64,000 nt of DNA from an uncultured Verrucomicrobiae bacterium (GTDB taxonomy: Bacteria; Verrucomicrobiota; Verrucomicrobiia; Limisphaerales; DSYF01), in NCBI GenBank assembly GCA_963751435.1, contig CAVVUP010000028.1, forward strand, positions 42,608 through 106,607, written 5' to 3'. How positions within the stretch are numbered: position 1 is the first letter of the stretch; every line of letters starts with the position of its first letter. Under the pieces are notes generated by a model. The model saw only the letters and a list, made by a program, of their open reading frames with translations, was not told where the DNA came from and did no database searches. The position numbers and the translations under genes were made by a program. Of this stretch, positions 34,117 to 63,367 are shown in pieces.

Positions 34117-37100
34117 TTACTGGGACAGCCGGAAGAAGACGCTGCCTTTCGTCGGGTCGACTGTCACGCTGACCGGACTGGTGCCGCCGCCGGGATAATC
34201 AAACCAGTTCGTGCCGAAACCGGTGCCCAGGCTGTTGGTCTGCGACTGGAGTTTGAAACTGCCCGTCCAGGAGAACCGCAACGCGCCGCCACCGAGGTTG
34301 GTGAGCGCGAGCGTCGGCGGCGGGATGACCGCCAGGCTCAAAGTGCCCGCTGGCCGGGGCGAAGGTCGGCATGACACCCCCCACGGACGGTTGGAGGACA
34401 ATGTTCGTGAAGTTGCCCGTCTTGGTGCCCGAGGCGGTGAACAGGTTGAAGGTTTCGCCGCCCACCCAGGTCGCGCCGGTGACGTTCGTCACGATGAGCG
34501 TCCCACCATAGGTGATGTTCGTCACCCCAAGGACGCGGTCACAGACCGGCGTGGCGCCGGATTTGCCGATCTGGAAGCGCGCGGTGCCGCCGAGCACGAG
34601 GTCGTTGCGGATGGTGAGAACTTCGTTGAGCGCGATTGAAATTCCCGGCTCCAGCGTCCCGTCGGAAACCCCCACCGGTCCGTTGATGACGCCGGTGCCG
34701 TCGAGCGTGCCGCCGGTGTTGGTCACCGCCGTGTTCGCCAAAACACCGGTTACGCGCAGCGTGCCCGCGTTGATCGTCGTGGAGCCGGTGTAAATGTTCG
34801 TGCCGGAAAGCGTCCAGGTGCCGCTGCCGGATTTAATTAGGTAAGTGCTCGACGGACTCGATCCGCCGCCAATGACGCCGCTGACCACGCCGTCACCGCT
34901 GCCGAGCAACTGCCAGTAACGTCCGGCCAGACTGTTGTTCAACGCACCGGAGACAGTGAGCAGACCTGCTTGCGATTCGAGGTTATACATGTTGCCGCCC
35001 GTGTCGGTCTGCATCGCTCCGGTCCAGGTATTCGTGCCGGAAACATTGCGCAGGTGCGGCGTGTCGGCGTTGTTGCCCTGCTTGCCGACGAGGGTCAAGG
35101 CTTCACCCGCAATCACCAGATTGGTGCCGGCCAGTTCCAGCGTGGCGGGGCTGTCTCCGCCCTGAACGGACGTGCCGCCGGCGGAGGTGCCCAGCGCACT
35201 GCTGTGCGCGATCCGCAGTTTGCCGTTCCCGACCGCCGTGGTGCCCGTGTAGGTGTTTCCCTTGGTGAGCGTGATGGTGCCGGAGCCTTCCTTGGTCAGG
35301 TTGCCCGTGCTGCCGCTGTTGGCAATGGTGCCGTCAAAGGTGCTGCTGCCATTGGCCACGCCGATGGTGAAGTCCGTGTAGCCAGCGCCATGCCATAGCC
35401 GGTCTTGATCGTGCCAGTGCCGCTAATGCGATTCACCCGTACGTTCGGCCTCCACACCGTCGAAGATCGCGCCCGCCGCCACGTTCAAGTCGGACTGGTT
35501 GGCGTCCCAATCCTCGTTGCCGTTCGATCCGCCGGTCAACGTGCCGCCCTGCACATCAATCAAGGCGCTCGAACCGAGCGCAAACGTCGCGGCAGTAGTT
35601 CCCCAATACGCCCGATTCGCGCCGGATTTTCGGAGTGTGCCGGAGCCGGAGAAGGCCGTCGAACCGTAGTTCTTCTCGCCGGTGGCGGTGTTCAATTCCA
35701 GCACCGCGCCGGAAACGATGGTGTGGGCTGAACTCGAGTGGTTGTTGCTGATGACCAAGGTGCCGGCGCTGACCGTGGTCGGCCCGGTGTAGGTGTTGGC
35801 ATTCGAAAGCGTCAGCGTGGCCGGGCCACTCTTCCAGCAGACCACCGTTACCGCTGACGGTTTGAGACAAGGCCCGGGTGGCTTGAAGGTTCAGCGCGAA
35901 CACGCCGTTGTTGCTCGCCACAATGCTCGTGGAACCTGCCAGGGCGCCGTCAGCTACGCCGTCGCCGAGTTGCAGCACGCCGTCCTTGATGGTCGTGACG
36001 CCCGTGTAGGTATTGGTGCGGCTCAGAACAACCGTGCCGGCGCCCAGCTTGGTCAGCCCGGCGGAACCGCCCACCACCGTCGCCACCACCCCGGTTGCGC
36101 CACCTTGGGCAGACAGATCAGGAGTCGTTCCGCTCAAGGTCAATGTGTTGCTTTGAATCGTGGCAGAGCTGTTGAACGTGACACTGTTGGCCATCATCCC
36201 GGGTGCCAGATTGATGGTGCCGGACGGGCCGCCGATGATCGCTTTGTCACTGCCAGAGTTGGGCCAGAGCGTGCCCAAGCCCCACCAGTTCGGCGTGACC
36301 GTGTCCCAAGTGCCGTTGCCGACGAGCCAGTGGTAGGCGGTGGGGGCGCCGTTGCCGATGGAGACGGTGAACGAGGTGGGCGTGGCCCATTCGCCATCCA
36401 TGACGAACAGCGTGATGACGGCGGACCCGCCCAGGCTGCCCGTCGGGGTGATCGTGACGGTGCGATTGGTGCCGGTGCCGCTGAGGAAAATGCTGTTGGC
36501 CGGGACCAGATTCGTGTTCGAGGAGGAGACGGTGACATTCAGACTGTCGACGGCGGTGTTCGGGTCACCGATGATGAAGGGAATCGGCCCGGTGGACATG
36601 TTGGTGCTGACGACTTGATCCGCCACGGTGCTGATGGTGGGCGGGTCGTTGAAGATGCCCATGTCCCGGCGCATGGCGGCGACGACCATCGGGCTGACCT
36701 GCCGCGCCTTGGTGGAATCCTCGTTGGGGTAATTGATGTTGTAAGGCCAGAAGTGGGCGCGGGTCGCAGCCGATCCTGCTGTTATGGTCAATCTGGTAAA
36801 CAAGGTTGTTGGCGTGCGGCCCCAGCCACTGGCCGTTGGCGCGGTGGTAATCCCATTGCCCGGCCGTGCCGGTGCCCATGACGTGCGTCATTTCGTGAAT
36901 CGCCGTGCGGGTGCTGATCGAACCGCCAAATGTGATGGGGCCTCCATGCCCCGCGTTGGCCGTCGGAACGCTGGAGTTGTATTGGATCTTGATGTTGCCC
37001 CCCAAACGTCCGTAAGTGCCATAGGCGTTGTAATAGGAAAGGCAGCCATTCATGGAATTGGTGATGGCCGTTTCCTTGCCGGCTGGCCAACTCTCCTCGC

Positions 37101-39525
37101 CGCTGGTGTAATACGTCAAGGCCGTGGGTCCCGTGGAGGCGGGGCCGCCCACGATCAAACTGCCCCGGCCGAAGAAATATTCCGGATGCGTCGTGCGATT
37201 ATACACGCCGGCCGGCATGGTCACGCCGTTGATGACCAGGGCTCCCACCTTGTCGGTGTCGTCATGCCACAGGTCAAGGATACCGCCGCGATTGATGATC
37301 ACGGTCGCGGTGTCGGACAGCGTCGCGCGCATGACGCGCAGGACGCCCTGCTCCACGATGGTGTTGCCGGTGTAAGTGCTGCCTTGCGCCCAGCAGGGAC
37401 CATCTGCCCGGCGCCGCGCTTGATGACGGAGCAGCCGCCCGTGATGGCCTTCCAGAAATGCCCGATGCCCGCGCCGGTGAAGATCAGGGTGGGATTGCTG
37501 TTGTAAACGAACGCCGCCGTCCCGTTGAAATCGTGCAGGAACCAGTCGGCACCCGCCGCCGTTTCAAACGTCGCGCCGCCGTTGACGGTCACGCCCCGAC
37601 CGTAGCCGGTGATGCCGTTCATGCGGATCGTCCCGCCGTTCACCACGAGGTGCTCCGGGCCGTTGCCCAGCAGCCCCAGCGAATCGTCGTTGTGCATCCA
37701 CCACTTATCCAACTCGAGGGTGGCCCCGGCGTTGACGGTGACGACCGCGATTTCATTGGCGGTGCCGTAATACAGCCGGCCATTGCCCGTGACCGCGAGC
37801 GTGCCGCCGTTGACGGTGACATTGCCCACGAAGGTGTTAGTCGTGTTCAAGGCAAGCCGCCCGGCGCCTTGTTTGGTCAGTCCGGTTCCCCCGGCAATGC
37901 CGCCGCTGCCGCTGATCGTGTAATTGCGCGTGGCGTTGCTCACCGTGATGCCGGAAGGGGTGACCGTGTTGGTCAGCGTCACCGTGGTATTCCCGGAAAG
38001 ATACGTCTCGTCGAAGATCACGGCGTCGCCGGCAGTGCCCGGCTCCTGATAGGCGGTGGCCGCGCCCCCGGCGTCCTTCCAGTTTGGCGTGTTGGTGTTC
38101 CAAACCCCAGCGCCGCTGGTCGCCCAACGGATGGGGGCGTTGGCGTTGGAATCAATGACCAGATAGAGCGTGTTGCCCGACACCAGCAGATGGCCCGTGA
38201 CAGGGCGCACGCTTAACACGGTCACATTGGTCGGCGTCAGACCGGAGACACTCGTCCACGCTATCAGGGGATATTGGGTTCCGGGGGTGCCGTCGAGGTT
38301 GCCGCCCGCTTTGACGGTCAACGCCGGCCGGGTGGTGAAGGTGGCGGCGCCGAGGACTTTCAGCGGGGCCACCGTCAGGCTGGGAGCGACGCCAACAAAG
38401 TTGAACTCCAGATCGGACCGGGTGCCGGCGTTGTTGACGGTAAGGCTCGCGCAAGCCCACTGGCCGCGCCGCGTTCACCGTTGAGACTCCGAGCGTGGCG
38501 GCATTTCCGGCAGTGGCGGCGAGGCTCACGGCGCTGTTGGAACAGGCACCGCTCGTCGCCATCACCAATTTCCCGGCATTGATGGTGGTGGCGCCGGCGT
38601 AGGTATTGACGCCGGACATGCTCCAGGTGCCGGTGCCGGTTTTCAACACGGCCGGCGTGTTGGCGTTGTCGAGCACGCCGCTGAAGAGGTTGTCGCCCGT
38701 GGAACTGCCGCTCAAATCCAACGCGCGACCGCCGGTGCTGGCCGTGATGTTGCCCGTCAGTTTGAGACTCCCGCCGTCGCTGATGATTTTCGTATTCCCG
38801 TTGCCCAACGTCATCGTAAAGGAGCCGGCGATGGTGTTGTCTCCGGCAAGGTTGCGGACGACGCCCGAAATACCGCTGGTCGTGAAATCAATGGTATCGG
38901 GCAGGAAGATGTCGCCGTCGGAACCATCGAGTTCCAGCATCTTGGTCAGGGAGGCCGCAATGGTCATGGTCTTGGCTCCCGCGCCCAGGCCGGCGGCCTG
39001 GGTAATACGAAGATTCCCGGCGCCGAGGTTGATGTTACCGGTGAACGTGTTGGCTCCGCTCAAGGTCAGCGTGCCGCTCCCTGACTTATTCAAGCCAGCC
39101 GTGCCGGCGAGAACGGATGAAACACTGGCGTCGGCATTGTTCACGAAGGTGGGCGTGGTGCCGCCCAGACTGAGGGTGTTGCCGGCAATGGTGTAGCCCG
39201 CCGCATTGAAGGTGATGGTATTCGCCGTGAGGTTGGTGGTGAGCGTCACGACGCCCACGCCCGTGGCGCCAAAAATGGCGCTGTCCGGGGTGGCACTGTT
39301 CCAAAGCGGCCCGCCCCAGTTGGAGTCGGTCTCGTTCCAGTCCATGCTGACCGCGCCGGTCCAGGTCAGGGTGGCGGCCTGCGTCGGCTGCACGGTCAGA
39401 ACCAGCAACCCCGCGGACGCTGCAACAATCAGTCCAGCCAGCCACTGGGGCCGGTTGGAGCGGTTCTGAAAGGAAACTTCCGGATCGGTAGGGCCGCACT
39501 GGGCGCGGCCGGGGCGTCGAGGCAC
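34117..39525 (-). pseudogene. Giant PATR-repeat surface protein with an embedded HExxH (HEMTH) metalloprotease-like module, interrupted by ~7 frameshifts
   Basis: Seven consecutive minus-strand ORFs join colinearly: 38152..39753, 37299..38372, 36565..37356, 35556..36803, 35423..35845, 34199..35359 and 34117..34401. My hand translation places the junctions at ~38460, ~37390, ~36780, ~35836, ~35447, ~35395 and ~34347. Examples are SGNGGLL|KSGPATLTLSNANTYTG and APASG|TLSLAVIPPPTLALTNLGGGALRFSW. HEMTH lies at 36883-36897. The start is uncertain; a GTG at 39525 precedes the leader NRSNRPQWLAGLIVAASAGLLVLTVQPTQA. Confidence 0.75.
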
Positions 39526-39823
39526 CGACGCCCTGCCGGAACGGAAGCCACTGCCGACAATCAGTCTAATGGCGCAAACACTCGACGCCGAACAGGTCCG
39601 ATTGGATCGCGGTAGAATCGGGGGAGCCGGAGGGCGGAAAGCAGATTTCGGTTTCACTGCCAATAATTTGAGCCAGCGCATTTGGTTAAAAGTTAGCAAC
39701 TGTCGCCACCCGGACAAGGCCCCCGCTATCATCCTTTTGGACGATGGGCGCATCTGGGCCGCGCCCGGATGGGCTCCTGGGGGATGGCTGAAGACAGGCC
39801 TCCTGGTTCACCCCTTGAAAGGC

Positions 39824-46094: not shown

Positions 46095-46380
46095 GGGTAG
46101 GGGTCAAACCATAGTCTTGACCGCGTAGCAGTGATTCGTGAGGCTCGTAGCCAATGCCACGTAAACTGCGAGTGGAGTTTCCTGGGGCCATTTACCACGT
46201 CATGAGCCGTGGGGATCGGCGAGAAGACATCTTCCAAGGGTAGGGGTCAAACCATAGTCTTGACCGCGTAGCAGTGATTCGTGAGGCTCGTAGCCAATGC
46301 CACGTAAACTGCGAGTGGAGTTTCCTGGGGCCATTTACCACGTCATGAGCCGTGGGGATCGGCGGGAAGACATCTTCCAA
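46095..46380 (+). repeat. 143-bp perfect-but-one tandem duplication covering the left REP-like hairpin, 5' UTR and first 28 codons of the RAYT-like gene
   Basis: Unit 1 (46095-46237) and unit 2 (46238-46380) differ at one position that I can see (a at ~46222 versus g at ~46365). Confidence 0.9.
46154..46243 (+). pseudogene. Truncated duplicate of the RAYT-like gene start (29 codons then TAG)
   Basis: It reads MPRKLRVEFPGAIYHVMSRGDRREDIFQG*, produced by the 143-bp duplication. Confidence 0.6.
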
Positions 46381-47262
46381 GACGATGTGGACCGGCAGGA
46401 TTTCCTCAAAACCTTGGCGGAGACCTGTCAGAAAACCGATTTCCAAGTGCATGCCTATTGCTTGATGGGAAACCATTTTCACCTGGTGGTGGAAACGCCC
46501 GAGGCGAACCTGGTGGCGGGAATGCGCTGGCTCTTGAGCACCTACACCATCCGACTCAATCACCGGCACAAGCTGGCCGGGCATGTCTTCAGCGGGCGTT
46601 ACAAGGCACTGCTGGTGGAGGGCAACGGAAACGGCTACTTGAAGACGGTGTGCGATTACGTGCATCTCAATCCGGTGAGAGCCGCCTTGTTGGGGGCGGA
46701 GGAACGGTTGTTGAGCTACCCTTGGAGCAGTCTGGGGTGGTATCTGGCGGCGGCGAAGCATCGGCCGCGGTGGATGCGGGTGGATCGGTTGCTGGGGGAA
46801 CATGGGATTGGAGCCGACGATGCGGCGGGGCGCAAGGCGTTTGAGCGGCGGATGGAGGCGAGGCGGCGGCAGGAGATGGATGAGGTTGAATACGAGCCGT
46901 TACGCCGGGGGTGGTGTCTGGGTGGGGAGGCGTTTCGCAAAGAGATGCTGGAGCGGATGGAGGGGCAGTTGGGGGAATCGCATGCCGGAGAGTTGAAACG
47001 GGAGAGTGCAGAGGCCCGGGCGGAACGGATCATCGGCGAGGAACTCAAGCGTCAGGGTTGGAGCGAAGCGCAATTGCGGCAGCGACGGAAGAGCGACCCG
47101 ATGAAGCTGGCGTTAGCGGCGCGGTTGCGACGGGAAACCATCCTGACAGTGGGATGGATTGCGCAGCGGCTGGAGATGGGGACGAGGAAGAGTGCCGCCA
47201 GCAAGTTGCACCATTGGGCCAGCGAGGAACAAAGAAAGGGGAGGGCCAAGACTATGGTCTGA
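46297..47262 (+). CDS. IS200/RAYT-like HUH (Y1) transposase with C-terminal HTH-like extension
   Basis: 321-aa ORF. The Y1_Tnp features are AIYHVMSRG, the HUH motif GNHFHLVVE and the catalytic-Tyr region GHVFSGRYKALLVE. The C-terminal part is DPMKLALAARLRRETILTVGWIAQRLEMG. Confidence 0.8.
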   Translation: MPRKLRVEFPGAIYHVMSRGDRREDIFQDDVDRQDFLKTLAETCQKTDFQVHAYCLMGNHFHLVVETPEANLVAGMRWLLSTYTIRLNHRHKLAGHVFSGRYKALLVEGNGNGYLKTVCDYVHLNPVRAALLGAEERLLSYPWSSLGWYLAAAKHRPRWMRVDRLLGEHGIGADDAAGRKAFERRMEARRRQEMDEVEYEPLRRGWCLGGEAFRKEMLERMEGQLGESHAGELKRESAEARAERIIGEELKRQGWSEAQLRQRRKSDPMKLALAARLRRETILTVGWIAQRLEMGTRKSAASKLHHWASEEQRKGRAKTMV

Positions 47263-47266
47263 CCCC
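47244..47266. repeat. Right REP-like inverted repeat of the RAYT unit (overlaps the stop codon)
   Basis: See 46095..47267. The sequence ggccaagactatggtctgacccc contains ...aag act atg gtc tga. Confidence 0.7.
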
Positions 47267-47478
47267 CGTCATACAAAACCCATGACCCCCGTCACGTCAC
47301 GCGAATTGGGTGCGTGCGAAGCGAGACTGTTGCAAGTGAGTACTGTAGAGCATTAAGCGTGAGCTGGCGCTTGAGCGAAACGTGGTTATCCGGCAGGCGG
47401 GTGAGTAGTTTGAGGTGGGATAGGAAACTCAAACACAAACCACAACATACCGGAGAACCACTATGAAGATCATGGTCG

Positions 47479-47486
47479 GAATTGAC
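47479..47486. repeat. 8-bp target-site duplication GAATTGAC (left copy) of the IS256 insertion
   Basis: An identical octamer directly abuts both IS256 ends. Confidence 0.85.
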
Positions 47487-48916
47487 GGGGCTGTAAATTA
47501 ATTCGTGTAAATGGCCAAACGAAAGGACAATGAAAGTTATGGCCATTACCGATGCAGTATTGAACGAACTCCTCAAAGACTACCAAAAGCCTGAAGATCT
47601 GTTGGGCAAGGACGGGCTGCTTAAGCAGTTACAGAAGCGCCTGCTGGAAAAAGCCATGGGCGCGGAGTTGACGGTGCATTTGGGTTACGACAAAAACGAC
47701 TCCGCCGGCGACAACAGCGGCAACTCCCGCAACGGCACTACTCCCAAGACGCTCAAGGGAGAGTTTGGGAACCTGCCCCTGGAGACGCCGCGCGATCGCA
47801 ACGGGACCTTTGAACCGCAGATCGTGGCCAAGGGGCAACGGCGCTTCGAGGGTTTCGACCAGGCGATCCTCAGCCTGTATGCCCGGGGACTGACGACGCG
47901 CGAGATCGAGGGGTATCTCTTGGAGATCTACGGAGTGGAGGTCTCACCGGGTCTGGTGTCGCAGGTAACCGAGGCGGTGTGTGCCGATGTGAAGGTCTGG
48001 CAGCAGCGGCCCTTGGAGGAGGTTTACCCCATCGTCTATTTTGATGCGCTCTGGGGCAAAGTGCGCACCAATGGGCAGGTGGTCAAAGTCGCGGTGTACC
48101 TGGCCCTTGGGATCAAAGTCGACGGCAACAAGGAGGTGCTGGGGATGTGGTCGGCCAACAGTGAAGGGGCCAAGTTCTGGCTGCACGTGTTGACCGAGCT
48201 CAAGAACCGAGGGGTACGCGACATCTTTATTGGCTGCGTGGATGGGCTTAAGGGTTTTCCGGAGGCCATGGAAGCGGTCTTTCCGGCGACGCAGGTGCAG
48301 TTGTGCCTGGTGCATATGGTGCGCCGTTCCCTGAGCTATGTGGGTTGGAAGGAACGCAAGGCGGTGGCGGCCGATTTGAAAGCGATCTATCGGGCGGCCA
48401 CGGAGGCCGAGGCCGAGCAAGCGCTGCAGGCTTTTGAACTCAAATGGGACCACAAATACCCTTCCATCAGCAAGAGTTGGCGCGCGCACTGGCCGGAACT
48501 CATCACCTTCCTGAAGTATCCGGCCGAGATCCGCAAAGCCATCTGCACGACCAACGCCATTGAATCGCTCAACCGGTCGTTGCGGAAGATCAGCAAGAAT
48601 CGTGGGGTATTTCCTCACGAGGAGTCGCTCCTAAAGCTTTACTACCTGGCGTTGGAGCGGGTGGCCAAAAAGTGGACTATGCCGATTCACGACTGGACCG
48701 CGGCGCTCAACCGTTTTGCCATTGAATTTGGCGATCGGATGCCCCGGTTGGATTGAGCACCCATGAGCCGGAAGATTTATTCAGTTTTACCGCAGGGGGC
48801 GCGAGCTAAGGCTCAAAGCTCGCCCCCTGCTCGTTTTATCTCAAACCGAAAGCTCGGGAAGTTAGGACAGTTAAACCAAAACAAAAAACCATTTACACAG
48901 ATTTCTTTACAAAACC
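47487..48916 (+). mobile_element. IS256-family insertion sequence, 1430 bp, complete
   Basis: The imperfect terminal inverted repeats are ggggctgtaaattaattcgtgtaaatggcc (47487-47516) and the reverse complement of 48887-48916, ggttttgtaaagaaatctgtgtaaatggtt. It has a single transposase ORF and an 8-bp target-site duplication. Confidence 0.9.
47530..48756 (+). CDS. IS256-family (Mutator-type) transposase
   Basis: 408-aa ORF with LKGEFGNLPLETPRDRNGTFEPQIV, LYARGLTTREIEGYL, VYFDALWGKVR, DGLKGFPEAMEAVFP..QLCLVHMVR and CTTNAIESLNRSLRK. Confidence 0.95.
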   Translation: MKVMAITDAVLNELLKDYQKPEDLLGKDGLLKQLQKRLLEKAMGAELTVHLGYDKNDSAGDNSGNSRNGTTPKTLKGEFGNLPLETPRDRNGTFEPQIVAKGQRRFEGFDQAILSLYARGLTTREIEGYLLEIYGVEVSPGLVSQVTEAVCADVKVWQQRPLEEVYPIVYFDALWGKVRTNGQVVKVAVYLALGIKVDGNKEVLGMWSANSEGAKFWLHVLTELKNRGVRDIFIGCVDGLKGFPEAMEAVFPATQVQLCLVHMVRRSLSYVGWKERKAVAADLKAIYRAATEAEAEQALQAFELKWDHKYPSISKSWRAHWPELITFLKYPAEIRKAICTTNAIESLNRSLRKISKNRGVFPHEESLLKLYYLALERVAKKWTMPIHDWTAALNRFAIEFGDRMPRLD

Positions 48917-48924
48917 GAATTGAC
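48917..48924. repeat. 8-bp target-site duplication GAATTGAC (right copy)
   Basis: See 47479..47486. Confidence 0.85.
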
Positions 48925-50681
48925 CTGCACAGCAACAACGCCCTTTGCGGCCTCATGGACGAAAAGGGGCGTCGTCTCCTGCACAAGAAGCTGCCCTGCG
49001 ACTTGGGCGCCATCCTCGAACTGCTCAAACCACATCAGAAACGCATCGCCACCATCGGGATCGAATCCACCTTCAACTGGTATTGGCTGGTGGATGGATT
49101 GCAAGATCACGGCTATCACGTCGTGCTCGCGAACCCTGCCGCCATGCAACCCTACAGCGGCAAGAAGCACACCGACGATGTGTCCGACGCCTACTTTATT
49201 GCCGAACTGCTGCGCTTGGATTTGCTGCCACTGGCCCACATCCCCAACCGCCAGGTTCGTCCGGTGCGCGATCTCCTGCGCCGCCGATTGCTACTGGTGC
49301 GGCAACGCACCACGCTGATCCTGAGCTTCAAGAGCCTCAACGAACGCACCCTCGGCGAGCGCGTGCCCTTGAGCCGTGTCAAGACCATGAAGGCGACGGA
49401 AGCTCAGGCGCGGTTTACCGCCCCCGCCGATCAACTGCTGGGCGGCGAGCAGATCACGCTGATGGGGCATCTGAGTGATTCCATCACCAAGCTGGAGCAA
49501 CACATCCTGGGCGTGACCGGGAAAACCGCCGCCTACCAGCGGCTGCAGGAACTGCCCGGCATCGGGAAGATTCTCGGCCTGACCATCGCGCTGGAAACGG
49601 GTGACGCCAAACGCTTCGCTGCCGCCGGGAACTTTGCCAGCTACTGCCGCTGCGTGAAGAGTCTGCGGCAAAGCAACAGCAAGAAGAAGGGCGAGAACAA
49701 CCGCAAATGCGGCAACAAGTATCTGGCCTGGGCGTTTGTGGAAGCGGCGCACTTCGCCTGCCGCTACGATGAACAGTGCCGCCGTTTCTATGACCGCAAG
49801 AAGCAGCAGACCAATCCGGTCATCGCGACCAAGGCGCTGGCGTGCAAGCTGGCCAAAGCCGCGTGGCATGTGATGGCCGAGGACGCGCCCTACGATGCCG
49901 AACGCGTCTTTGGGCCGGGCAAGAAAACCGATTTAGGGGAGACCGGTCGGGAGCCAGCAAACGGGTCTGGACACGCGAGCCAGCAGAACTGAATGGACCC
50001 GGCGGGTCTCCCCGCCCACCCGCCGCGGCGGGAGTGGCCCAAGGCGAAAGAATTTTTGGTGATTCGACCAGGCTGTGAGTCAACGCGAGTCTGGACGCGA
50101 AACCGGAAGGGGACGCGAGCCACAAGTCATGACCACTGAATGAACACGGCCTGGCACTGAATGTTTTCTGGCTCCCGGAAGATCGGGAGGAGGGCGTGCG
50201 CTGCGCGGGGACGAAAGTCCGCCTGCGGCAGACCGGACTGACACCCAGGCCGGACGCGACACGCTGGAACCAGATGGGTGACTGAACGGATCACCTTCCC
50301 TGCCGGGAAGGTTGCATTCGCCAACAACGACTGAAATGACAGGAAGGAATCGCGCCTTGAACGCCGCCCGCAACGGCCAAGAAAGACAAAGACAGCTTCT
50401 AAGAAAAGAAAGGCTGGCTGACGGAAATCCATTTTTGCATTTGACCGCCCACGCTAATGGGCGACACGTTTTGGTTTGAGACCCTCACAGGTGCTGCTTT
50501 GACAAGGTTCGCTTGGCTCTCCGACTCGTGCCGGGATAGGGGCTTGGTTGCTCCGCGAGCACCAGCGCTCGTTGCTTCACGTCCTGGGGTTGTTCGGTGC
50601 CGCCGGGGTTGGGTGGCGAATTCCGTTGTCTGCACGCCCGCGAGGCAGTAAATAATCTCCAACTTGAGCCCGTTTCGAACA

Positions 50682-56127: not shown

Positions 56128-56319
56128 GATGTTGGTCGAAAACTGCTGAAACGATGACGCAACATCGGGACAAGTCAAACTCTTGAACCCCGCGCTCCCG
56201 GCGCCGGATTCACTTTCCCACCGCTCCCCTCCGCCCCGCCGTGCGCCAAAAAATTCCTCGAATCGGGGGTTGACAGGCAAAACCGCATTCATCAACTTAT
56301 CCGCATCCGTTGATACGAC

Positions 56320-56440
56320 GGACTCATAAGGAGTGGCTGAGGGATCTGGCCCTGTGAAGCCACGGCAACCGGTTGCGGCGCGTCTCGCAATGGCTAGGTG
56401 CCAAATCCAGCCCGGCCCGTTGCCGGGAAAGATGAGGAGA
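56320..56440 (+). promoter_or_regulatory. SAM-I (S-box) riboswitch aptamer
   Basis: The sequence is ctcataaggagtggctgagggatctggccctgtgaagccacggcaacc...ggtgccaaatccagc...gaaagatgag. It matches the conserved S-box blocks: cUUAUcaAGAG-GG-GGAGGGA-UGGCCC-AUGAA-CC-GGCAACC...GGUGCCAAAUCC-GC...GAAAGAUGAG. A TTGACA -35-like hexamer lies at 56270-56275 and a GGAGA Shine-Dalgarno at 56513-56517. Confidence 0.85.
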
Positions 56441-56526
56441 GCACGCGCGACCGGTTCGCCTCTTCTCAATGCTACGGGAAGGGGCTCTTTGCTGCCCAAC
56501 TTCCCCCAGACGCGGAGAACGACATT

Positions 56527-57789
56527 ATGCACCAGAAAACAGGCTTCATGCAGGCGTTGAAGTGTCGGGAGTGCGGAAGGGAATATCCTCTCACAGCCAA
56601 CCACGTGTGCGAATACGACTTCGGCCCACTCGAGGTCGTTTATGATTACGACCGGATCAAACGCTCCCTCAGCCATGCGATCATTGAGTCGCGTCCGAAG
56701 TCCATGTGGCGATACCGCGAGCTACTCCCAATCGCCGGCGAACCCACGGTCGGGCAGCAGGTCGGGTTTACCCCCCTGGTAAGAGCCGACCGCCTGGCTG
56801 CGCGGCTCGGGATACGCGAGCTTTGGATCAAGAATGACACGGTCAATTACCCGACGCTTTCCTTCAAGGATCGCGTGGTCAGCGTGGCGTTGAGCCGCTC
56901 GAAGGAACTGGGTTTCAAGGTGGTGGCCTGCGCTTCCACCGGTAACCTGGCCAACTCCGTTGCCGCGAATGCCGCCTCGGCTGGTTTGAAGGCTTACGTG
57001 TTCATTCCCTCGGACCTCGAGCAGGGCAAGGTGCTCAATTCGCTCATTTACGGCGCCCGGGTGGTGGGGATCAAAGGACACTACGACGAGGTCAACCGGC
57101 TGTGTGCGGAGATCGCCGGCAAGTTCGGCTGGGCCTTTGTCAACGTGAACATGCGCCCCTACTATGCGGAGGGCTCCAAGAGCATGGGCTACGAGATTGC
57201 CGAGCAACTGGGATGGAAGGTGCCGCAGCACACCGTCATTCCCATGGCCTCGGGTTCACTGCTGACCAAAATCCACAAAGCCTACCAGGAATTGGCCAAG
57301 CTCGGGTTGGTGGAGGACACACCGCACCACATCCACGGGGCGCAGGCGACGGGCTGCTCGCCGATCTCGACGGCGCATAAAGCCGGGCTGGATTTCTTCA
57401 AGCCGGTCAAACCGAACACCATCGCCAAGTCTCTGGCCATCGGGACCCCTGCGGACGGTTTTTACGCCCTGCGCGTGATGAGCGAAACGCAGGGGGCGGC
57501 CGAGGACGTCACCGATGATGAGATTCGCGAAGGGATCCGGTTGCTGGCGGAATGCGAGGGCATTTTTGCCGAAACCGCCGGGGGCGTCACGGTGGGCGTG
57601 GCCAAGAAACTGATTGCCTCCGGCAGGATTCCGTCCGATGAATCAGCCGTGCTGTGCATCACCGGTCATGGGTTGAAGACGCTCGATGCCGTGGTGGGCC
57701 ATGTCGGCCACGCGGCGGAAATCAAACCCAGCCTGCGCGAATTCGAGGCCCTGACGGCCCATGAAGACAACACCTTGGTAAACGCCTGA
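56527..57789 (+). CDS. Threonine synthase-family PLP enzyme with N-terminal zinc-ribbon (ThrC-like; candidate O-phosphohomoserine-dependent homocysteine synthase)
   Basis: It runs from MHQKTGFMQALKCRECGREYPLTANHVCEYDFGPLEVVYDYD. It has the PLP lysine region NYPTLSFKDRVVSVAL and ACASTGNLANSVAANAA. It lies directly downstream of the S-box riboswitch. Confidence 0.8.
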   Translation: MHQKTGFMQALKCRECGREYPLTANHVCEYDFGPLEVVYDYDRIKRSLSHAIIESRPKSMWRYRELLPIAGEPTVGQQVGFTPLVRADRLAARLGIRELWIKNDTVNYPTLSFKDRVVSVALSRSKELGFKVVACASTGNLANSVAANAASAGLKAYVFIPSDLEQGKVLNSLIYGARVVGIKGHYDEVNRLCAEIAGKFGWAFVNVNMRPYYAEGSKSMGYEIAEQLGWKVPQHTVIPMASGSLLTKIHKAYQELAKLGLVEDTPHHIHGAQATGCSPISTAHKAGLDFFKPVKPNTIAKSLAIGTPADGFYALRVMSETQGAAEDVTDDEIREGIRLLAECEGIFAETAGGVTVGVAKKLIASGRIPSDESAVLCITGHGLKTLDAVVGHVGHAAEIKPSLREFEALTAHEDNTLVNA

Positions 57790-57791
57790 TT

Positions 57792-58067
57792 ATGTCAAAG
57801 AAAGTCCGCATCCCCACCCCGCTGCGCAAACTCACCAACAACGAGGAACTCGTCGAGGTGTCCGGCTCCACCGTCGGCGAGATCATCGCCGAGCTCCAGA
57901 CCCGTTACCCCGGGTTTCAGGAGCGTTTGCTGGATGAAAACGGCCAGATCCGTCGTTTCGTGAATGTGTACGTCAACGAGGAAGACGTGCGCTTCCTGAA
58001 CAACCAAAACACGGTGCTGAAAGAAGGCGACGAGGTCAGCATCATTCCCGCCATTGCCGGGGGATAG
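57792..58067 (+). CDS. MoaD/ThiS-family ubiquitin-like sulfur-carrier protein (C-terminal Gly-Gly)
   Basis: 91-aa ORF ending ...GDEVSIIPAIAGG-stop. The start is 2 nt after the ThrC-like stop. Confidence 0.8.
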   Translation: MSKKVRIPTPLRKLTNNEELVEVSGSTVGEIIAELQTRYPGFQERLLDENGQIRRFVNVYVNEEDVRFLNNQNTVLKEGDEVSIIPAIAGG

Positions 58068-58074
58068 ACTCCAC

Positions 58075-58371
58075 ATGCCTGCCAAACCGAAATCCGTCCG
58101 CAACCGGGTCCGAACCACGCCCGCCACACCGCAGCAGACGCGGCTGTGGCTGATGTATCCTGCCCGCCTGATCCGCGAGCCCATCATCTGGAAGCTTGGG
58201 CGCAAGTTCCCCGTGGTCACCAACATCCGCCAGGTCAGTGTGACCGACGAAATCGGGATCGTGTGCCTCGAAATCGACGGCAAACGTCAGGATGTGAAGA
58301 AGGCCATCCGCTGGCTGGAAAACCTCGGTGTGAGCGTCGAACCCGTCGAAATCAACGTGATCGAGAGCTGA
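58075..58371 (+). CDS. NIL-domain protein
   Basis: 98 aa from the ATG at 58075. RLWLMYPARLIREPIIWKLGRKFPVVTNIRQVSVTDEIGIVCLEIDGKRQDVKKAIRWLENLGVSVEPVE resembles the NIL domain found at the C-terminus of MetN and in methanogen homocysteine-synthesis proteins. This is from memory, not searched. Confidence 0.6.
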   Translation: MPAKPKSVRNRVRTTPATPQQTRLWLMYPARLIREPIIWKLGRKFPVVTNIRQVSVTDEIGIVCLEIDGKRQDVKKAIRWLENLGVSVEPVEINVIES

Positions 58372-61194: not shown

Positions 61195-61767
61195 TTATGT
61201 CCTGGCGCGCCCGGCGACTCGATACCGGGGCGCGGTCTCTCTGACGTGAAATCCGATTTCGCGGCGGCTCGCTTCGCCGGTTCCCATCAACCGGCGGATC
61301 GTTTCGAAAACCTCCGCCAGGGACTGGTCGTGTCCGGCCACCCGCTCCTCCAGGTCCGCCAGCTTGGCGGCCAGTTGCCGATGCGTGCTGAGGTAATCGC
61401 GCATCCGGACGAATGCCCTGACCACTTGGACACTGGCTTGGACGGCGAGCGGGCTGTTGAGCACGCTGGCCAGCATGATGGCGCCGTGCTCGGTGAAAAC
61501 GATGGGACGATAACGCGATCCTCCTCGCCCCTTTGAGGTCACAAATTGTGACCTCAAAGCCGCAAACTCCTGAACATCAAGCTCGAAGGCGAAATCTGTC
61601 GGGAAACGATAAGCATTGCGCCTCACAGCCTGCTTGAGGTGTTTGGTGCTCACCCCGTAGATCCTTGCAAGGTCCGAATCCAGCATGACCCGCAGTCCGC
61701 GGAACTCATGGATCAACCGATCCAAGTCCGCCGATCCCTTTCTCCCCTCTAGACTGGCCATATACAT
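61195..61767 (-). CDS. ORF6N-domain (KilA-N-related DNA-binding) protein inserted between atpA and atpG
   Basis: It reads FRGLRVMLDSDLARIYGVSTKHLKQAVRRNAYRFPTDFAFEL...LRSQFVTSKGRGGSRYRPIVFTEHGAIMLASVLNSPLAVQASVQVVRAFVRMR, followed by a coiled-coil tail. The start is uncertain (ATGs at 61800, 61767 and 61761; the track uses the TTG at 61812). The stop is 2 nt before the atpG ATG. Confidence 0.8.
   Translation of the reverse strand: MYMASLEGRKGSADLDRLIHEFRGLRVMLDSDLARIYGVSTKHLKQAVRRNAYRFPTDFAFELDVQEFAALRSQFVTSKGRGGSRYRPIVFTEHGAIMLASVLNSPLAVQASVQVVRAFVRMRDYLSTHRQLAAKLADLEERVAGHDQSLAEVFETIRRLMGTGEASRREIGFHVRETAPRYRVAGRART
61531..61559. repeat. Perfect 29-bp palindrome (14+1+14) inside the ORF6N coding sequence
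   Basis: I checked ctttgaggtcacaa-a-ttgtgacctcaaag base by base. It encodes LRSQFVTSK. Confidence 0.95.
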
Positions 61768-61808
61768 GTTTGAATCAACCACCTGCAACCGGGGCACCAT
61801 GATCGGGC

Positions 61809-63346
61809 TCAACGGTAGGTCTGCTTGAATTCCGTCACCGCCGCTTTCAACGCCGCGCTCAATGCGTCGTCCAAGGCGCCTTTGGCACGGATCTGATCCA
61901 GCAGGTCGGTTTTGCGGGTCGTGAGGTAATCGCTGAGTTTCGCCTGGAAATCTTTCACCTTGTCCACCGGGACGTCGTCCAGCAGTTCATTCTGGACCGT
62001 CCACAGCGTGGCCACCTGCACCTCGACGGTGATCGGGCGGTATTGCGGCTGTTTGAACAGTTCCACAATGCGTTTGCCCCGCTCCAGCCGCTTCTGAGTG
62101 GCCGCGTCCAAGTCCGATCCAAACTGGGCAAAGGCGGCCAGCTCGCGGTACTGCGCCAGCTCCAGCTTGATGCGACCGGCCACCTGCTTCATGGCCTTCA
62201 CCTGCGCCGCCGAGCCCACGCGGGACACGGAGATACCGACGTTGATCGCCGGACGAACGCCCTGGTAGAACAGGTCGGTTTCCAGGAAGATCTGGCCGTC
62301 CGTGATCGAGATCACGTTGGTCGGGATGTAGGCGGACACGTCGCCCGCCTGCGTTTCAATGATCGGGCAGCGCGGTCAGTGAACCGTTTCCATTCGCCTC
62401 ATTCAACCGGGCGGACCGCTCCAGCAATCGGCTGTGCAGGTAGAACACGTCGCCGGGATACGCCTCGCGACCGGACGGACGTTTCAACACCAGCGACACC
62501 TGCCGGTAGGCCTGCGCTTGCTTGGACAAGTCATCGTAAATGATCAGCGCGTCCATCCCGTTGTCCATGAACCATTCGCCCATCGGCGCAGCCGGCGAAG
62601 GGCGCGAGGTACTGGCTGGTGGCGGAGTCGGACGCGGCGGCCACGACAACGATGCGAATACTTCAGCGCACCGTGCTCCTCCAGCGTCGGCGATGACGCG
62701 CGCGATGTTCGACTGCTTCTGCCCAATGGCGACGTAGATGGAGTAGAGCGGACGGTAATCCTTGTCGCCGCGCTCCTCGGCCACCTGGTTCAGGCGCGCG
62801 TTGCTGATCATCGTGTCCACGCAGACGGTGGTCTTGCCGGTGGAACGGTCGCCGATGATCAATTCGCGCTGGCCACGGCCGATCGGGAATCATCGCGTCG
62901 ACGGCCATGATGCCGGTCTGGACCGGCTGGCTGACGGACTTCCGTTTGATGATGCCAGGGGCGATCTTCTCGACCGGATAGTAGGTGTCGGTCTGGATCG
63001 GGCCCTTGCCATCGACCGGGCGGCCGAGCGTATCCACCACGCGGCCGAGCATGACCTTGCCGACGGGCACGGAAAGCAGCTTCCCGGTGGTCTTGACCTC
63101 CAGCCCTTCCTTGACGCCGAGGTAATCGCCCAGGATCACGGCGCCCACCTCGGTTTCCTCGAGGTTCAACGCCAGCCCCATGACCCCGTGTCCGAAGTCG
63201 ATCATCTCGTTCAGCATCACGTCGGCCAGGCCTTCGATCTTGGCCACGCCGTCGCCGACTTCACGGACGACCCCGACATTTTGCTTCAAGGTGGTCTGTT
63301 TGACCCCGGCGATTTGGGCTTCAATTTCCTGCAACAGATTGCTCAT
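61809..63346 (-). pseudogene. atpA: F1 ATP synthase alpha subunit, reading frame broken at >=5 places between ~62345 and ~62885
   Basis: There are three main ORF pieces (62663..63346, 62356..62862, 61809..62339) plus a 62544..62726 piece ([10 protein letters not shown]). My hand translation restores AVDAMIP|[18 protein letters not shown]...ARVIA|[11 protein letters not shown]|[23 protein letters not shown]|[23 protein letters not shown]...SLTALP|[28 protein letters not shown] if single extra bases are removed. Confidence 0.9.
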
Positions 63347-63367
63347 AGCTTTCTCTTCAATCGATCT

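Follow-up and report, generated by a model that had tools for sequence, protein, structure and literature searches.

A SAM riboswitch-led operon in Limisphaerales encoding a MetM-like enzyme, a Gly-Gly sulfur carrier and a NIL-domain protein: a probable protein-thiocarboxylate route to homocysteine

In Mycobacterium tuberculosis, CysO is the thiocarboxylate donor of the enzyme CysM. In Wolinella succinogenes, Krishnamoorthy and Begley are said to have found a system of HcyS, HcyD, HcyF and MetY in which the sulfur of homocysteine comes from a ubiquitin-like carrier; here, a JAMM protease reportedly trims a single-residue C-terminal extension of the carrier, and the enzyme is MetY, an O-acetylhomoserine sulfhydrylase. 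Routes of the Wolinella type are referred to as 'the protein thiocarboxylate pathway' (PMC5764234). A further variant was described in Streptomyces albulus, where, according to Hasebe et al. 2024 (Appl Environ Microbiol 90:e01247-24) as summarized in GapMind 2026, the threonine synthase homolog MetM makes homocysteine from O-phosphohomoserine and the thiocarboxylate of the carrier MetO, with MoeZ and Mec as helpers. In addition, the S. albulus metM gene has an upstream S-adenosylmethionine (SAM) riboswitch (PMC12172450), and threonine synthase is a common misannotation of MetM (PMC12172450, GapMind 2026). Here we analyze a stretch of 64,000 nucleotides (nt) from an uncultured Verrucomicrobiae bacterium of the order Limisphaerales (contig CAVVUP010000028.1; hereinafter, the window), which contains an operon coding for a threonine synthase (ThrC) homolog, a small sulfur carrier and a NIL-domain protein. 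Judging from homology and gene context, it is quite probable that this operon provides for self-contained, SAM-repressed, protein-thiocarboxylate-dependent homocysteine synthesis of the MetM/MetO kind.

The operon and its leader are encoded on the + strand. The only Rfam match that cmscan detects in the 64-kb window is a SAM-I (S-box) riboswitch aptamer at 56321-56438, which covers the full RF00162 model (1-108 of 108) with E 1.3e-17 and a score of 81.4 bits, far above the gathering score of 44.4; the aptamer that a preceding sequence-only reading had placed at 56320-56440 is thereby confirmed. That reading also had the aptamer correctly upstream of the ThrC-like gene, at a distance of 87 nt, which by our count is 88 nt from the aptamer end to the ATG. 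The MetM-like threonine synthase homolog occupies 56527-57789 (420 amino acids (aa), ATG at 56527) and is followed after 2 nt by the gene for the MetO/CysO-type sulfur carrier (57792-58067, 91 aa, ending IIPAIAGG-stop) and after another 7 nt by the gene for a stand-alone NIL-domain protein (58075-58371, 98 aa). These gene calls and gaps, already present in the sequence-only reading, hold: a PALP enzyme, a ThiS-family carrier with Gly-Gly directly before the stop codon and a NIL domain were all matched. A Shine-Dalgarno-like GGAGAA, read from the sequence, lies 7 nt 5' of the ATG; both this motif and the C-rich element discussed below had been noticed before, and only their coordinates needed correction, from 56513-56518 to 56514-56519 for the former and to 56458-56467 (GCCUCUUCUC) for the latter.

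The organization of this locus closely parallels the MetM/MetO system of S. albulus, in which a ThrC-homologous pyridoxal phosphate (PLP) enzyme is likewise found beside a Gly-Gly carrier of about 90 aa and a SAM riboswitch, and in which MoeZ and Mec are encoded elsewhere, just as no E1 or JAMM gene is present in the window. As a stand-in for S. albulus MetM, we used the chromosome of the actinomycete Nonomuraea gerenzanensis from the plasmid collection, in which one locus combines a SAM-I riboswitch (68.7 bits), a ThrC-like gene and a 91-aa carrier ending AGG. The window enzyme is 55% identical to the riboswitch-linked Nonomuraea protein and colinear with it from end to end, and the two share the N-terminal Cys-x2-Cys segment and the PLP-lysine motif SFKDR; the two carriers are also colinear throughout, with 54% identity. 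The locus described here differs in belonging to Verrucomicrobiota and in having a third conserved gene, that of the NIL protein, which is absent from the Nonomuraea locus. Taken together with the resemblance of the carrier to CysO, the Nonomuraea kinship makes the MetM/MetO reading the best available one. The sequence-only reading had arrived at the same assignment, for which the Nonomuraea layout, the CysO-like carrier and the riboswitch upstream of S. albulus metM now provide support.

By profile comparison alone, the enzyme would be called a threonine synthase: besides the match to the PALP family (E 5e-68), it scores 277 bits, above the cut-off, with the thrC model TIGR00260, and 294.5 bits, just below the cut-off of 303, with NF006050. 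Its closest solved relative is ThrC of Thermus thermophilus (1uim, E 2.4e-53), and all its solved relatives are threonine synthases. A cyanobacterial MetM-like 'ThrC' has furthermore been reported to have threonine-related activities (PMC12172450). Hence the possibility has to be considered that this is an ordinary or bifunctional threonine synthase and that the carrier and the NIL protein serve another sulfur-transfer process. We consider this very improbable given that repression of thrC by SAM makes no regulatory sense and that a Gly-Gly carrier follows the enzyme gene in 75 of 80 related loci and is clustered with it in Nonomuraea and in all 8 contexts of carrier-NIL fusions that were checked (see below). 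Moreover, the 55% identity to the riboswitch-linked actinobacterial gene is to be compared with at most 38% to the other thrC matches in the plasmid collection, and the Nonomuraea record contains two further ThrC-like places beside the MetM-like gene. The enzyme is also 64-68% identical to the ThrC-like proteins encoded in the clusters with carrier-NIL fusions (five loci measured).

The carrier belongs to the ThiS family (PF02597, E 1.8e-20) and scores above the cut-offs of NF041918 and TIGR01687, which are SAMP1 and archaeal MoaD models. Among solved structures, CysO of M. tuberculosis is closest to it (3dwg_C, E 9.4e-23, residues 3-91), and its free C-terminal Gly-Gly would allow adenylation and thiocarboxylation. 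In the structural model of a fused homolog, which is 58-65% identical to the window protein as are the other fusions, the carrier half superposes on CysO with a TM score of 0.88-0.90. The beta-grasp fold that had been proposed for the 91-aa protein is thus well supported, in part by the predicted structure of this homolog. The CysM/CysO/Mec/MoeZ system follows the same logic, in that its PLP enzyme attacks an O-phospho amino acid with sulfur drawn from the thiocarboxylate of a protein; in other phyla, genes for CysM-like, JAMM and ThiF proteins share clusters with the carrier-NIL fusions. The differences are that the enzyme in the window is a ThrC homolog and not a member of CysM/CysK, that its predicted product is homocysteine and not cysteine, and that the adjacent mec gene is missing, whereas a NIL partner is present. 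Compared with the Wolinella route, the window operon uses a ThrC homolog instead of MetY. A possible structurally characterized relative of the architecture in which a carrier is followed by a C-terminal domain is the 168-aa 'MoaD related protein' of T. thermophilus (PDB 1v8c), in which a carrier domain ending PPVAGG precedes about 80 residues; Foldseek aligns 1v8c over the whole carrier-NIL model (E 4.2e-9), with a different domain orientation.

A scan of one genome per species yielded 80 loci in which the ThrC-like protein shares 80-85% identity with the window enzyme. By tblastn, the ThrC-like gene is present in all 80, the carrier in 75 and the NIL protein in 64; among the 65 loci whose downstream DNA extends for at least 2.5 kb, the respective counts for the carrier and NIL are 60 and 54, the NIL protein being always encoded by a separate gene. 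Clustering of the open reading frames (ORFs) of the 80 loci showed that only the three operon genes recur, with flanks that are unrelated from locus to locus, so that on the evidence of gene neighborhoods the three genes appear to form a self-contained, autonomous unit. The next-commonest ORF clusters, found in 20 and 14 loci, are by eye HU/IHF-like and HisRS-like, and other flanking genes, again by eye, include SMC-like, glycine-cleavage-like and ATP synthase genes.

In loci L003-L079, the short stretch that separates the enzyme gene from the carrier gene is an insertion hot spot for unrelated small ORFs (examples are L005 1614-2789, L057 1333-2943 and L011 9240-13413). Some of the inserted ORFs look like toxin-antitoxin or HEPN/nucleotidyltransferase proteins, and the carrier gene is reduced to a remnant in L005 and L057. 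These inserts were considered as candidate E1 or JAMM genes and rejected, being unrelated accessory ORFs or second copies of the carrier. Eight loci contain two tandem carrier genes, of the subtypes PAFAGG and PAIAGG (L072 9260-9592 and L074 9275-9559, and probably L007, L068, L070 and L078 among them). Six loci (L059, L063, L066, L071, L073, L076) have only the (I)PAFAGG carrier subtype and lack NIL.

A homologous riboswitch leader precedes the ThrC-like gene in 74 of the 80 related loci, and even the lowest-scoring four reach 70.7-83.4 bits in Rfam; L053, L056, L077 and L079 contain the ThrC-like gene with no SAM riboswitch at the Rfam threshold in the examined DNA. Upstream of the aptamer, we identified a putative promoter at 56248-56298 that consists of an A-tract (56248-56253), a TTGACA -35 box (56270-56275), a 17-nt spacer and a weak -10 candidate, CAACTT (56293-56298). 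In 72 of 73 related leaders, TTGAC(A), preceded by an A-run, is found at an identical distance from the aptamer. CAACTT may be the -10 box of the operon promoter, and it is because of its weakness that a consensus scan does not flag the promoter. Directly abutting the 5' side of the aptamer helix P1 is a leader hairpin, UCCGUUG-AUA-CGACGGA (56306-56322). Of the 74 related leaders, 73 form a hairpin of at least 4 bp here, with sequences that are wholly different between clades (e.g. CCCGGGCGACCGGG and CUGCAGGCGACUGCAG), often with GNRA-like loops, and with a mean folding free energy of -7.1 kcal/mol as against -2.8 kcal/mol for shuffles. This hairpin lies outside the Rfam SAM-I model and may protect the 5' end or stack on P1.

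The expression platform was compared across 60 aligned sequences for covariation and across the 74 related leaders for U-tract and Shine-Dalgarno counts. The relatives share a design with two alternative pairings of a C-rich element, CCUCUUCUC: one with AUGAGAAGAG, the P1 3' strand, and the other with GAGAAGGGG, which gives a hairpin that is followed by UUUUUU. The counterparts in the window are a predicted antiterminator at 56434-56467, in which the P1 3' strand GAGGAGAG (56434-56441) pairs with CUCUUCUC (56460-56467) at a local fold energy of -15.0 kcal/mol, and a terminator-type hairpin with a degraded U-tract at 56458-56493, formed by GCCUCUUCUC and GGGAAGGGGC (56458-56485), of which the latter, the conserved alternative partner of the C-rich strand, lies at 56476-56485, and followed by the U-tract UCUUUGCU (56486-56493). 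A terminator scan of the window sequence flags the 56458-56493 hairpin, with an energy of -15.3 kcal/mol. The core helix of the antiterminator is 98% paired among the 60 sequences, compared with 57-76% in slid controls, and shows 7 double-change cells where 1.3 are expected; the terminator helix is 87% paired (slid controls, 54-66%) and shows 28 such cells against an expectation of 10.3 +/- 3; in neither case did any of 500 shuffles reach the observed number. The P1 3' strand accordingly has a mutually exclusive alternative pairing, with compensatory changes in excess of both shuffled and slid controls, and in 64 of 74 relatives the 8-nt segment that adjoins the stem contains at least 6 U. These comparisons, in which covariation is the principal evidence, identify the platform as a predicted antiterminator/terminator switch, that is, classical S-box transcription attenuation. 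The pairing of the P1 3' strand with CCUCUUCUC had been foreseen in the sequence-only reading and stands; the translational mechanism assigned to it there is not supported, the conserved alternative partner of the C-rich strand being the 3' strand of the terminator.

For this particular genome, a switch acting mainly on translation, such that the SAM-bound state frees the C-rich strand to pair with the Shine-Dalgarno region, deserves separate consideration. The U-tract of the window, UCUUUGCU, has only 5 U in 8 positions and is weaker than in the relatives; a UCUUCUC:GGAGA(A) pairing is present in the lowest-energy fold of 56458-56522 (-23.5 kcal/mol); and the terminator 3' strand has an extended downstream partner. 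The latter belongs to a downstream alternative hairpin at 56476-56505, in which GGGAAGGGGC pairs with GCCC (56494-56497) and CUUCCC (56500-56505) at -16.9 kcal/mol. A GCCC(C)-type box just 3' of the U-tract is found in 50 of 74 relatives and pairs with the G-rich 3' strand of the terminator (GGGGC-UUUUUGUU-GCCCC); in the window, the complement of the GCCC box (56494-56505) extends to GCCCAACUUCCC. This hairpin may hold the terminator 3' strand in read-through transcripts. On the other side, the pairing with the Shine-Dalgarno region amounts to merely 5-7 bp, and only 13 of 74 leaders have, within the 25 nt that precede the start codon, 5 nt or more complementary to the C-rich element, so that Shine-Dalgarno sequestration was rejected as the conserved mechanism; furthermore, the spacing between terminator and start codon ranges from about 20 to 160 nt among the relatives, the terminator hairpin of the window is intact and supported by covariation, and the whole-leader fold energy is ordinary (z = -1.75 and -0.95). 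A mainly translational switch thus seems unlikely, and an added translational effect in this one genome is possible. Minimum-energy folds of the whole leader were discarded as evidence, the aptamer being mis-folded in them. Between the terminator and the start codon, the leaders of L004, L005, L008, L030, L002, L003 and other relatives contain a long GC-rich inverted repeat (e.g. GGUAGGGCCGAGCUGCCGCUCGGCC...GGGCGGCGCAGCAACGCCGCCCUACC) that resembles a repetitive extragenic palindromic (REP) or miniature inverted-repeat transposable element (MITE).

The third gene encodes a protein in which NIL is the only detectable domain (PF09383, 38.8 bits against a cut-off of 24, E 8.8e-10), with no trace of a NIL-ferredoxin architecture. 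A basic, variable N-terminal tail (approximately residues 1-20) is followed by a beta-alpha-beta-beta-alpha-beta core; in the AlphaFold model (predicted local distance difference test (pLDDT) 81.4), the strands and helices come in the order of the NIL fold, and the predicted structure sought for the 98-aa protein is accordingly similar to the C2 domain of MetN. The top Foldseek matches of this model are MetN C2 domains, including a selenomethionine-bound form, and then ACT domains, and the closest PDB sequence match is 3dhx (E 5.6e-5). The resemblance to Escherichia coli MetN C2 involves the same Pfam family and fold (3dhx, 3tuz, 3dhw) and the retention of N295 as N50, which is invariant in 62 homologs; in MetN, the N295A substitution reduces L-methionine binding to undetectable levels (PMC6233128). 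In contrast to MetN, the protein is stand-alone and predicted to be cytosolic, with no ABC ATPase and about 28% identity, and its ligand binding is a prediction. The other context in which NIL is known is the ferredoxin subunit of L-aspartate-semialdehyde sulfurtransferase, for which a role as methionine sensor has been proposed (PMC12068725). With this type, represented by the NIL-ferredoxin MA1822 of methanogens and Desulfovibrio, the window protein shares the attachment of NIL to a homocysteine-forming sulfur-transfer system. The differences are that it has no ferredoxin domain and its single Cys is not conserved, that MA1822 is partnered by a COG1900/DUF39 protein and not by a ThrC-like enzyme with a ubiquitin-like carrier, and that the MA1822-type substrate is aspartate semialdehyde, compared with the predicted O-phosphohomoserine here. 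A role in a persulfide relay was considered and judged unlikely because the only Cys alternates with Ser among homologs.

The link between NIL and the carrier is seen most clearly in other lineages. A search of 1.84 billion cluster representatives with the NIL query yielded 584 clusters at E <= 1e-3 and 146 at 1e-10, among which are stand-alone NIL proteins of about 80 aa, tandem NIL-NIL proteins, fusions with NIL directly after the IIPAIAGG of a carrier (P0275, P0297, P0322, P0328, P0371), one protein of the same layout with the divergent carrier end LPG (P0388), and Prok-JAB-NIL fusions (P0332, P0348). When the fusion P0275 was used as the query, 119 of the best 120 clusters (90% identity, query included) carried ThiS and NIL; those with names come from metagenome-assembled genomes labelled Deltaproteobacteria, Thermodesulfobacteriota or Limnocylindrales. 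A ThrC-like gene of 411-428 aa belongs to the same cluster as the ThiS-NIL fusion in each of the 8 contexts that were checked, directly upstream of the fusion in 5 and two genes upstream in 3, where ThiI and TusA, or a sulfite-reductase-like gene and TusA, intervene. Frequent neighbors of the fusions are genes for Prok-JAB, ThiF (once as ThiF-rhodanese, the MoeZ architecture), a CysM-like PALP protein, ThiI, TusA, ATP sulfurylase and adenosine 5'-phosphosulfate kinase, and a SAM-I riboswitch (92.8 bits) opens one ThiS-NIL operon. Aligned with the carrier plus NIL of the window, the fusions are colinear, at 58-65% identity over carrier residues 1-91 and at 48-53% over NIL residues from about 20 to 97, and the basic N-terminal tail of the window NIL protein corresponds to the fusion linker. 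The Verrucomicrobial arrangement of carrier and NIL is a split form of the fusion. In one case, P0287 (238 aa, a single ORF), a fragment of a MetM-like PALP protein, a ThiS end (ILSAIAGG) and NIL are joined; although probably the product of a deletion or of chimeric assembly, it links the three parts again. It is shown by fusion, gene order and conservation that NIL belongs with the carrier and its protease as a dedicated third component. The sequence-only reading correctly noted NIL as a component of unknown role, but NIL is no oddity, being a conserved partner of the carrier that is fused to it elsewhere.

A carrier needs its Gly-Gly exposed at the C-terminus, so that cleavage of the fusions is required, presumably by the JAMM protease encoded next to them, a need to which the trimming of the Wolinella carrier is analogous, with the difference that the extension here is a folded domain. 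A serious rival reading, if somewhat improbable, is that NIL is a ligand-free adaptor, chaperone or pro-domain for the carrier, which in the fused form would cap the Gly-Gly until the JAMM protease releases the carrier and in the split form would dock the carrier to the E1, a hydrolase or MetM. Several features of the fusions fit such a role: NIL directly follows Gly-Gly; in the ThiS-NIL model (pLDDT 86.8, predicted template modeling score (pTM) 0.78), whose NIL half matches MetN C2, the Gly-Gly junction is of low confidence (residues 89-94, pLDDT below 50), and such a predicted disordered junction would suit a cleavage site; the pTM value hints at a defined carrier-NIL contact; Prok-JAB genes adjoin many fusions; and JAB-NIL fusions exist. 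An adaptor without a ligand is harder to reconcile with the invariance in NIL of the Asn that is critical for methionine binding by MetN and with the fact that the other NIL contexts all pertain to methionine or homocysteine metabolism, and no JAMM gene is detectable within 6 kb of the fusions in L083, L089 and L091. The adaptor and sensor roles are, in any case, mutually compatible.

Given that the other known contexts of NIL, MetN and the ferredoxin subunit, concern methionine, we infer by analogy that NIL probably is a small-molecule sensor, most likely of methionine, that tunes the use or maturation of the carrier or the activity of MetM post-translationally. A more specific version, which we offer as tentative and rate no higher than the adaptor, is that NIL is a methionine- or homocysteine-responsive regulator that binds the C-terminal region of the carrier and thereby gates JAMM processing and E1 activation, or sulfur delivery to MetM.

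Besides the threonine synthase label that the enzyme receives from TIGR00260 and the degraded U-tract, which makes the efficiency of termination in the window uncertain, several observations weigh against the reading of the operon as a complete, SAM-repressed homocysteine synthesis module. Searches of the 64-kb window by tblastn with ThiF, JAMM, ThiI and TusA proteins from related loci as queries returned nothing, in keeping with the earlier observation that no E1 is encoded in the window, and homologs of the same four proteins are likewise undetectable by tblastn within 8 kb in any of the 80 related loci; nor does a separate canonical thrC or another homocysteine route lie in the window or in this range of the related loci. 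NIL is lacking in 11 of the 65 Limisphaerales loci with sufficient downstream DNA, and actinobacterial MetM/MetO loci work without it; the NIL protein has no match in the plasmid collection and is absent from the whole Nonomuraea chromosome at E 1e-3. The actinobacterial loci and these 11 imply that NIL is not essential to the chemistry. Finally, the two frameshifts in the neighboring atpA gene (see below) suggest that the assembly of the window has indel errors.

The MetM/MetO reading nevertheless remains the preferred one, and it suggests the following course of events. Transcription would start at the conserved TTGACA promoter. When SAM is scarce, the P1 3' strand would pair with the C-rich element to form the antiterminator, and the three genes would be transcribed; when SAM is bound, P1 would close and the C-rich element would pair with GGGAAGGGGC, so that the terminator-type hairpin forms and transcription is attenuated. 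The 91-aa carrier, by homology, would be adenylated and thiocarboxylated at its Gly-Gly by a MoeZ/ThiF-type E1 encoded elsewhere, and the ThrC-like PLP enzyme, again by homology, would exchange the phosphate of O-phosphohomoserine for the thiocarboxylate sulfur of the carrier to yield homocysteine. Sensing of methionine by NIL would complement the riboswitch at the post-translational level.

Homologs place the organism in Verrucomicrobiota, order Limisphaerales (Pedosphaera-like). On the 5' side of the operon are a BamB/PQQ-like propeller gene, an ORF that looks by eye like a sigma factor, transposases and glycoside hydrolases. Three transposase genes in a row (46297-49992) belong to the IS200-like Y1, Mutator/IS256 and IS110 families, and four adjacent ORFs with PATR autotransporter repeats lie upstream of this row (34199-39753). 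On the 3' side of the NIL gene, an ATP synthase operon is encoded on the opposite strand. Its atpA gene (ATP synthase alpha, 61812-63358, - strand) is spread over three reading frames in comparison with the intact ortholog of L052, the frame changes near 62887 and 62365 being either assembly indel errors or the mark of a pseudogene. Between atpG and atpA, at 61195-61812 on the - strand, is a gene for a 205-aa ORF6N-domain protein (PF10543, E 1.6e-31), and four other Limisphaerales loci encode a homolog of this protein near their atp genes.

The riboswitch and the enzyme-carrier pair described here are of known kinds, and the pathway is the 2024 discovery in a new phylum. What appears to be new with respect to the searchable literature is that NIL is systematically linked to MetM-type systems, with ThiS-NIL and JAB-NIL fusions among the cases, and that an S-box terminator would govern the operon in Limisphaerales; the literature searched on the NIL domain does not mention a link to sulfur carriers, and the primary MetM paper may do so. 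If the reading is correct, the MetM/MetO route would be standard, under classical S-box attenuation, in a large Verrucomicrobial order of soil and freshwater, and outside Actinobacteria the module would usually come with NIL, be it as a separate gene, directly after the Gly-Gly of the carrier or on the JAMM protease. The adjacency of carrier and NIL is a possible marker to separate MetM from ThrC for tools such as GapMind. Should NIL indeed sense methionine, amino-acid feedback would be linked to a ubiquitin-like carrier; this would be the first small-molecule allosteric control on a prokaryotic ubiquitin-like protein, and the module would have two layers of feedback, by SAM at the RNA level and by methionine at the protein level.

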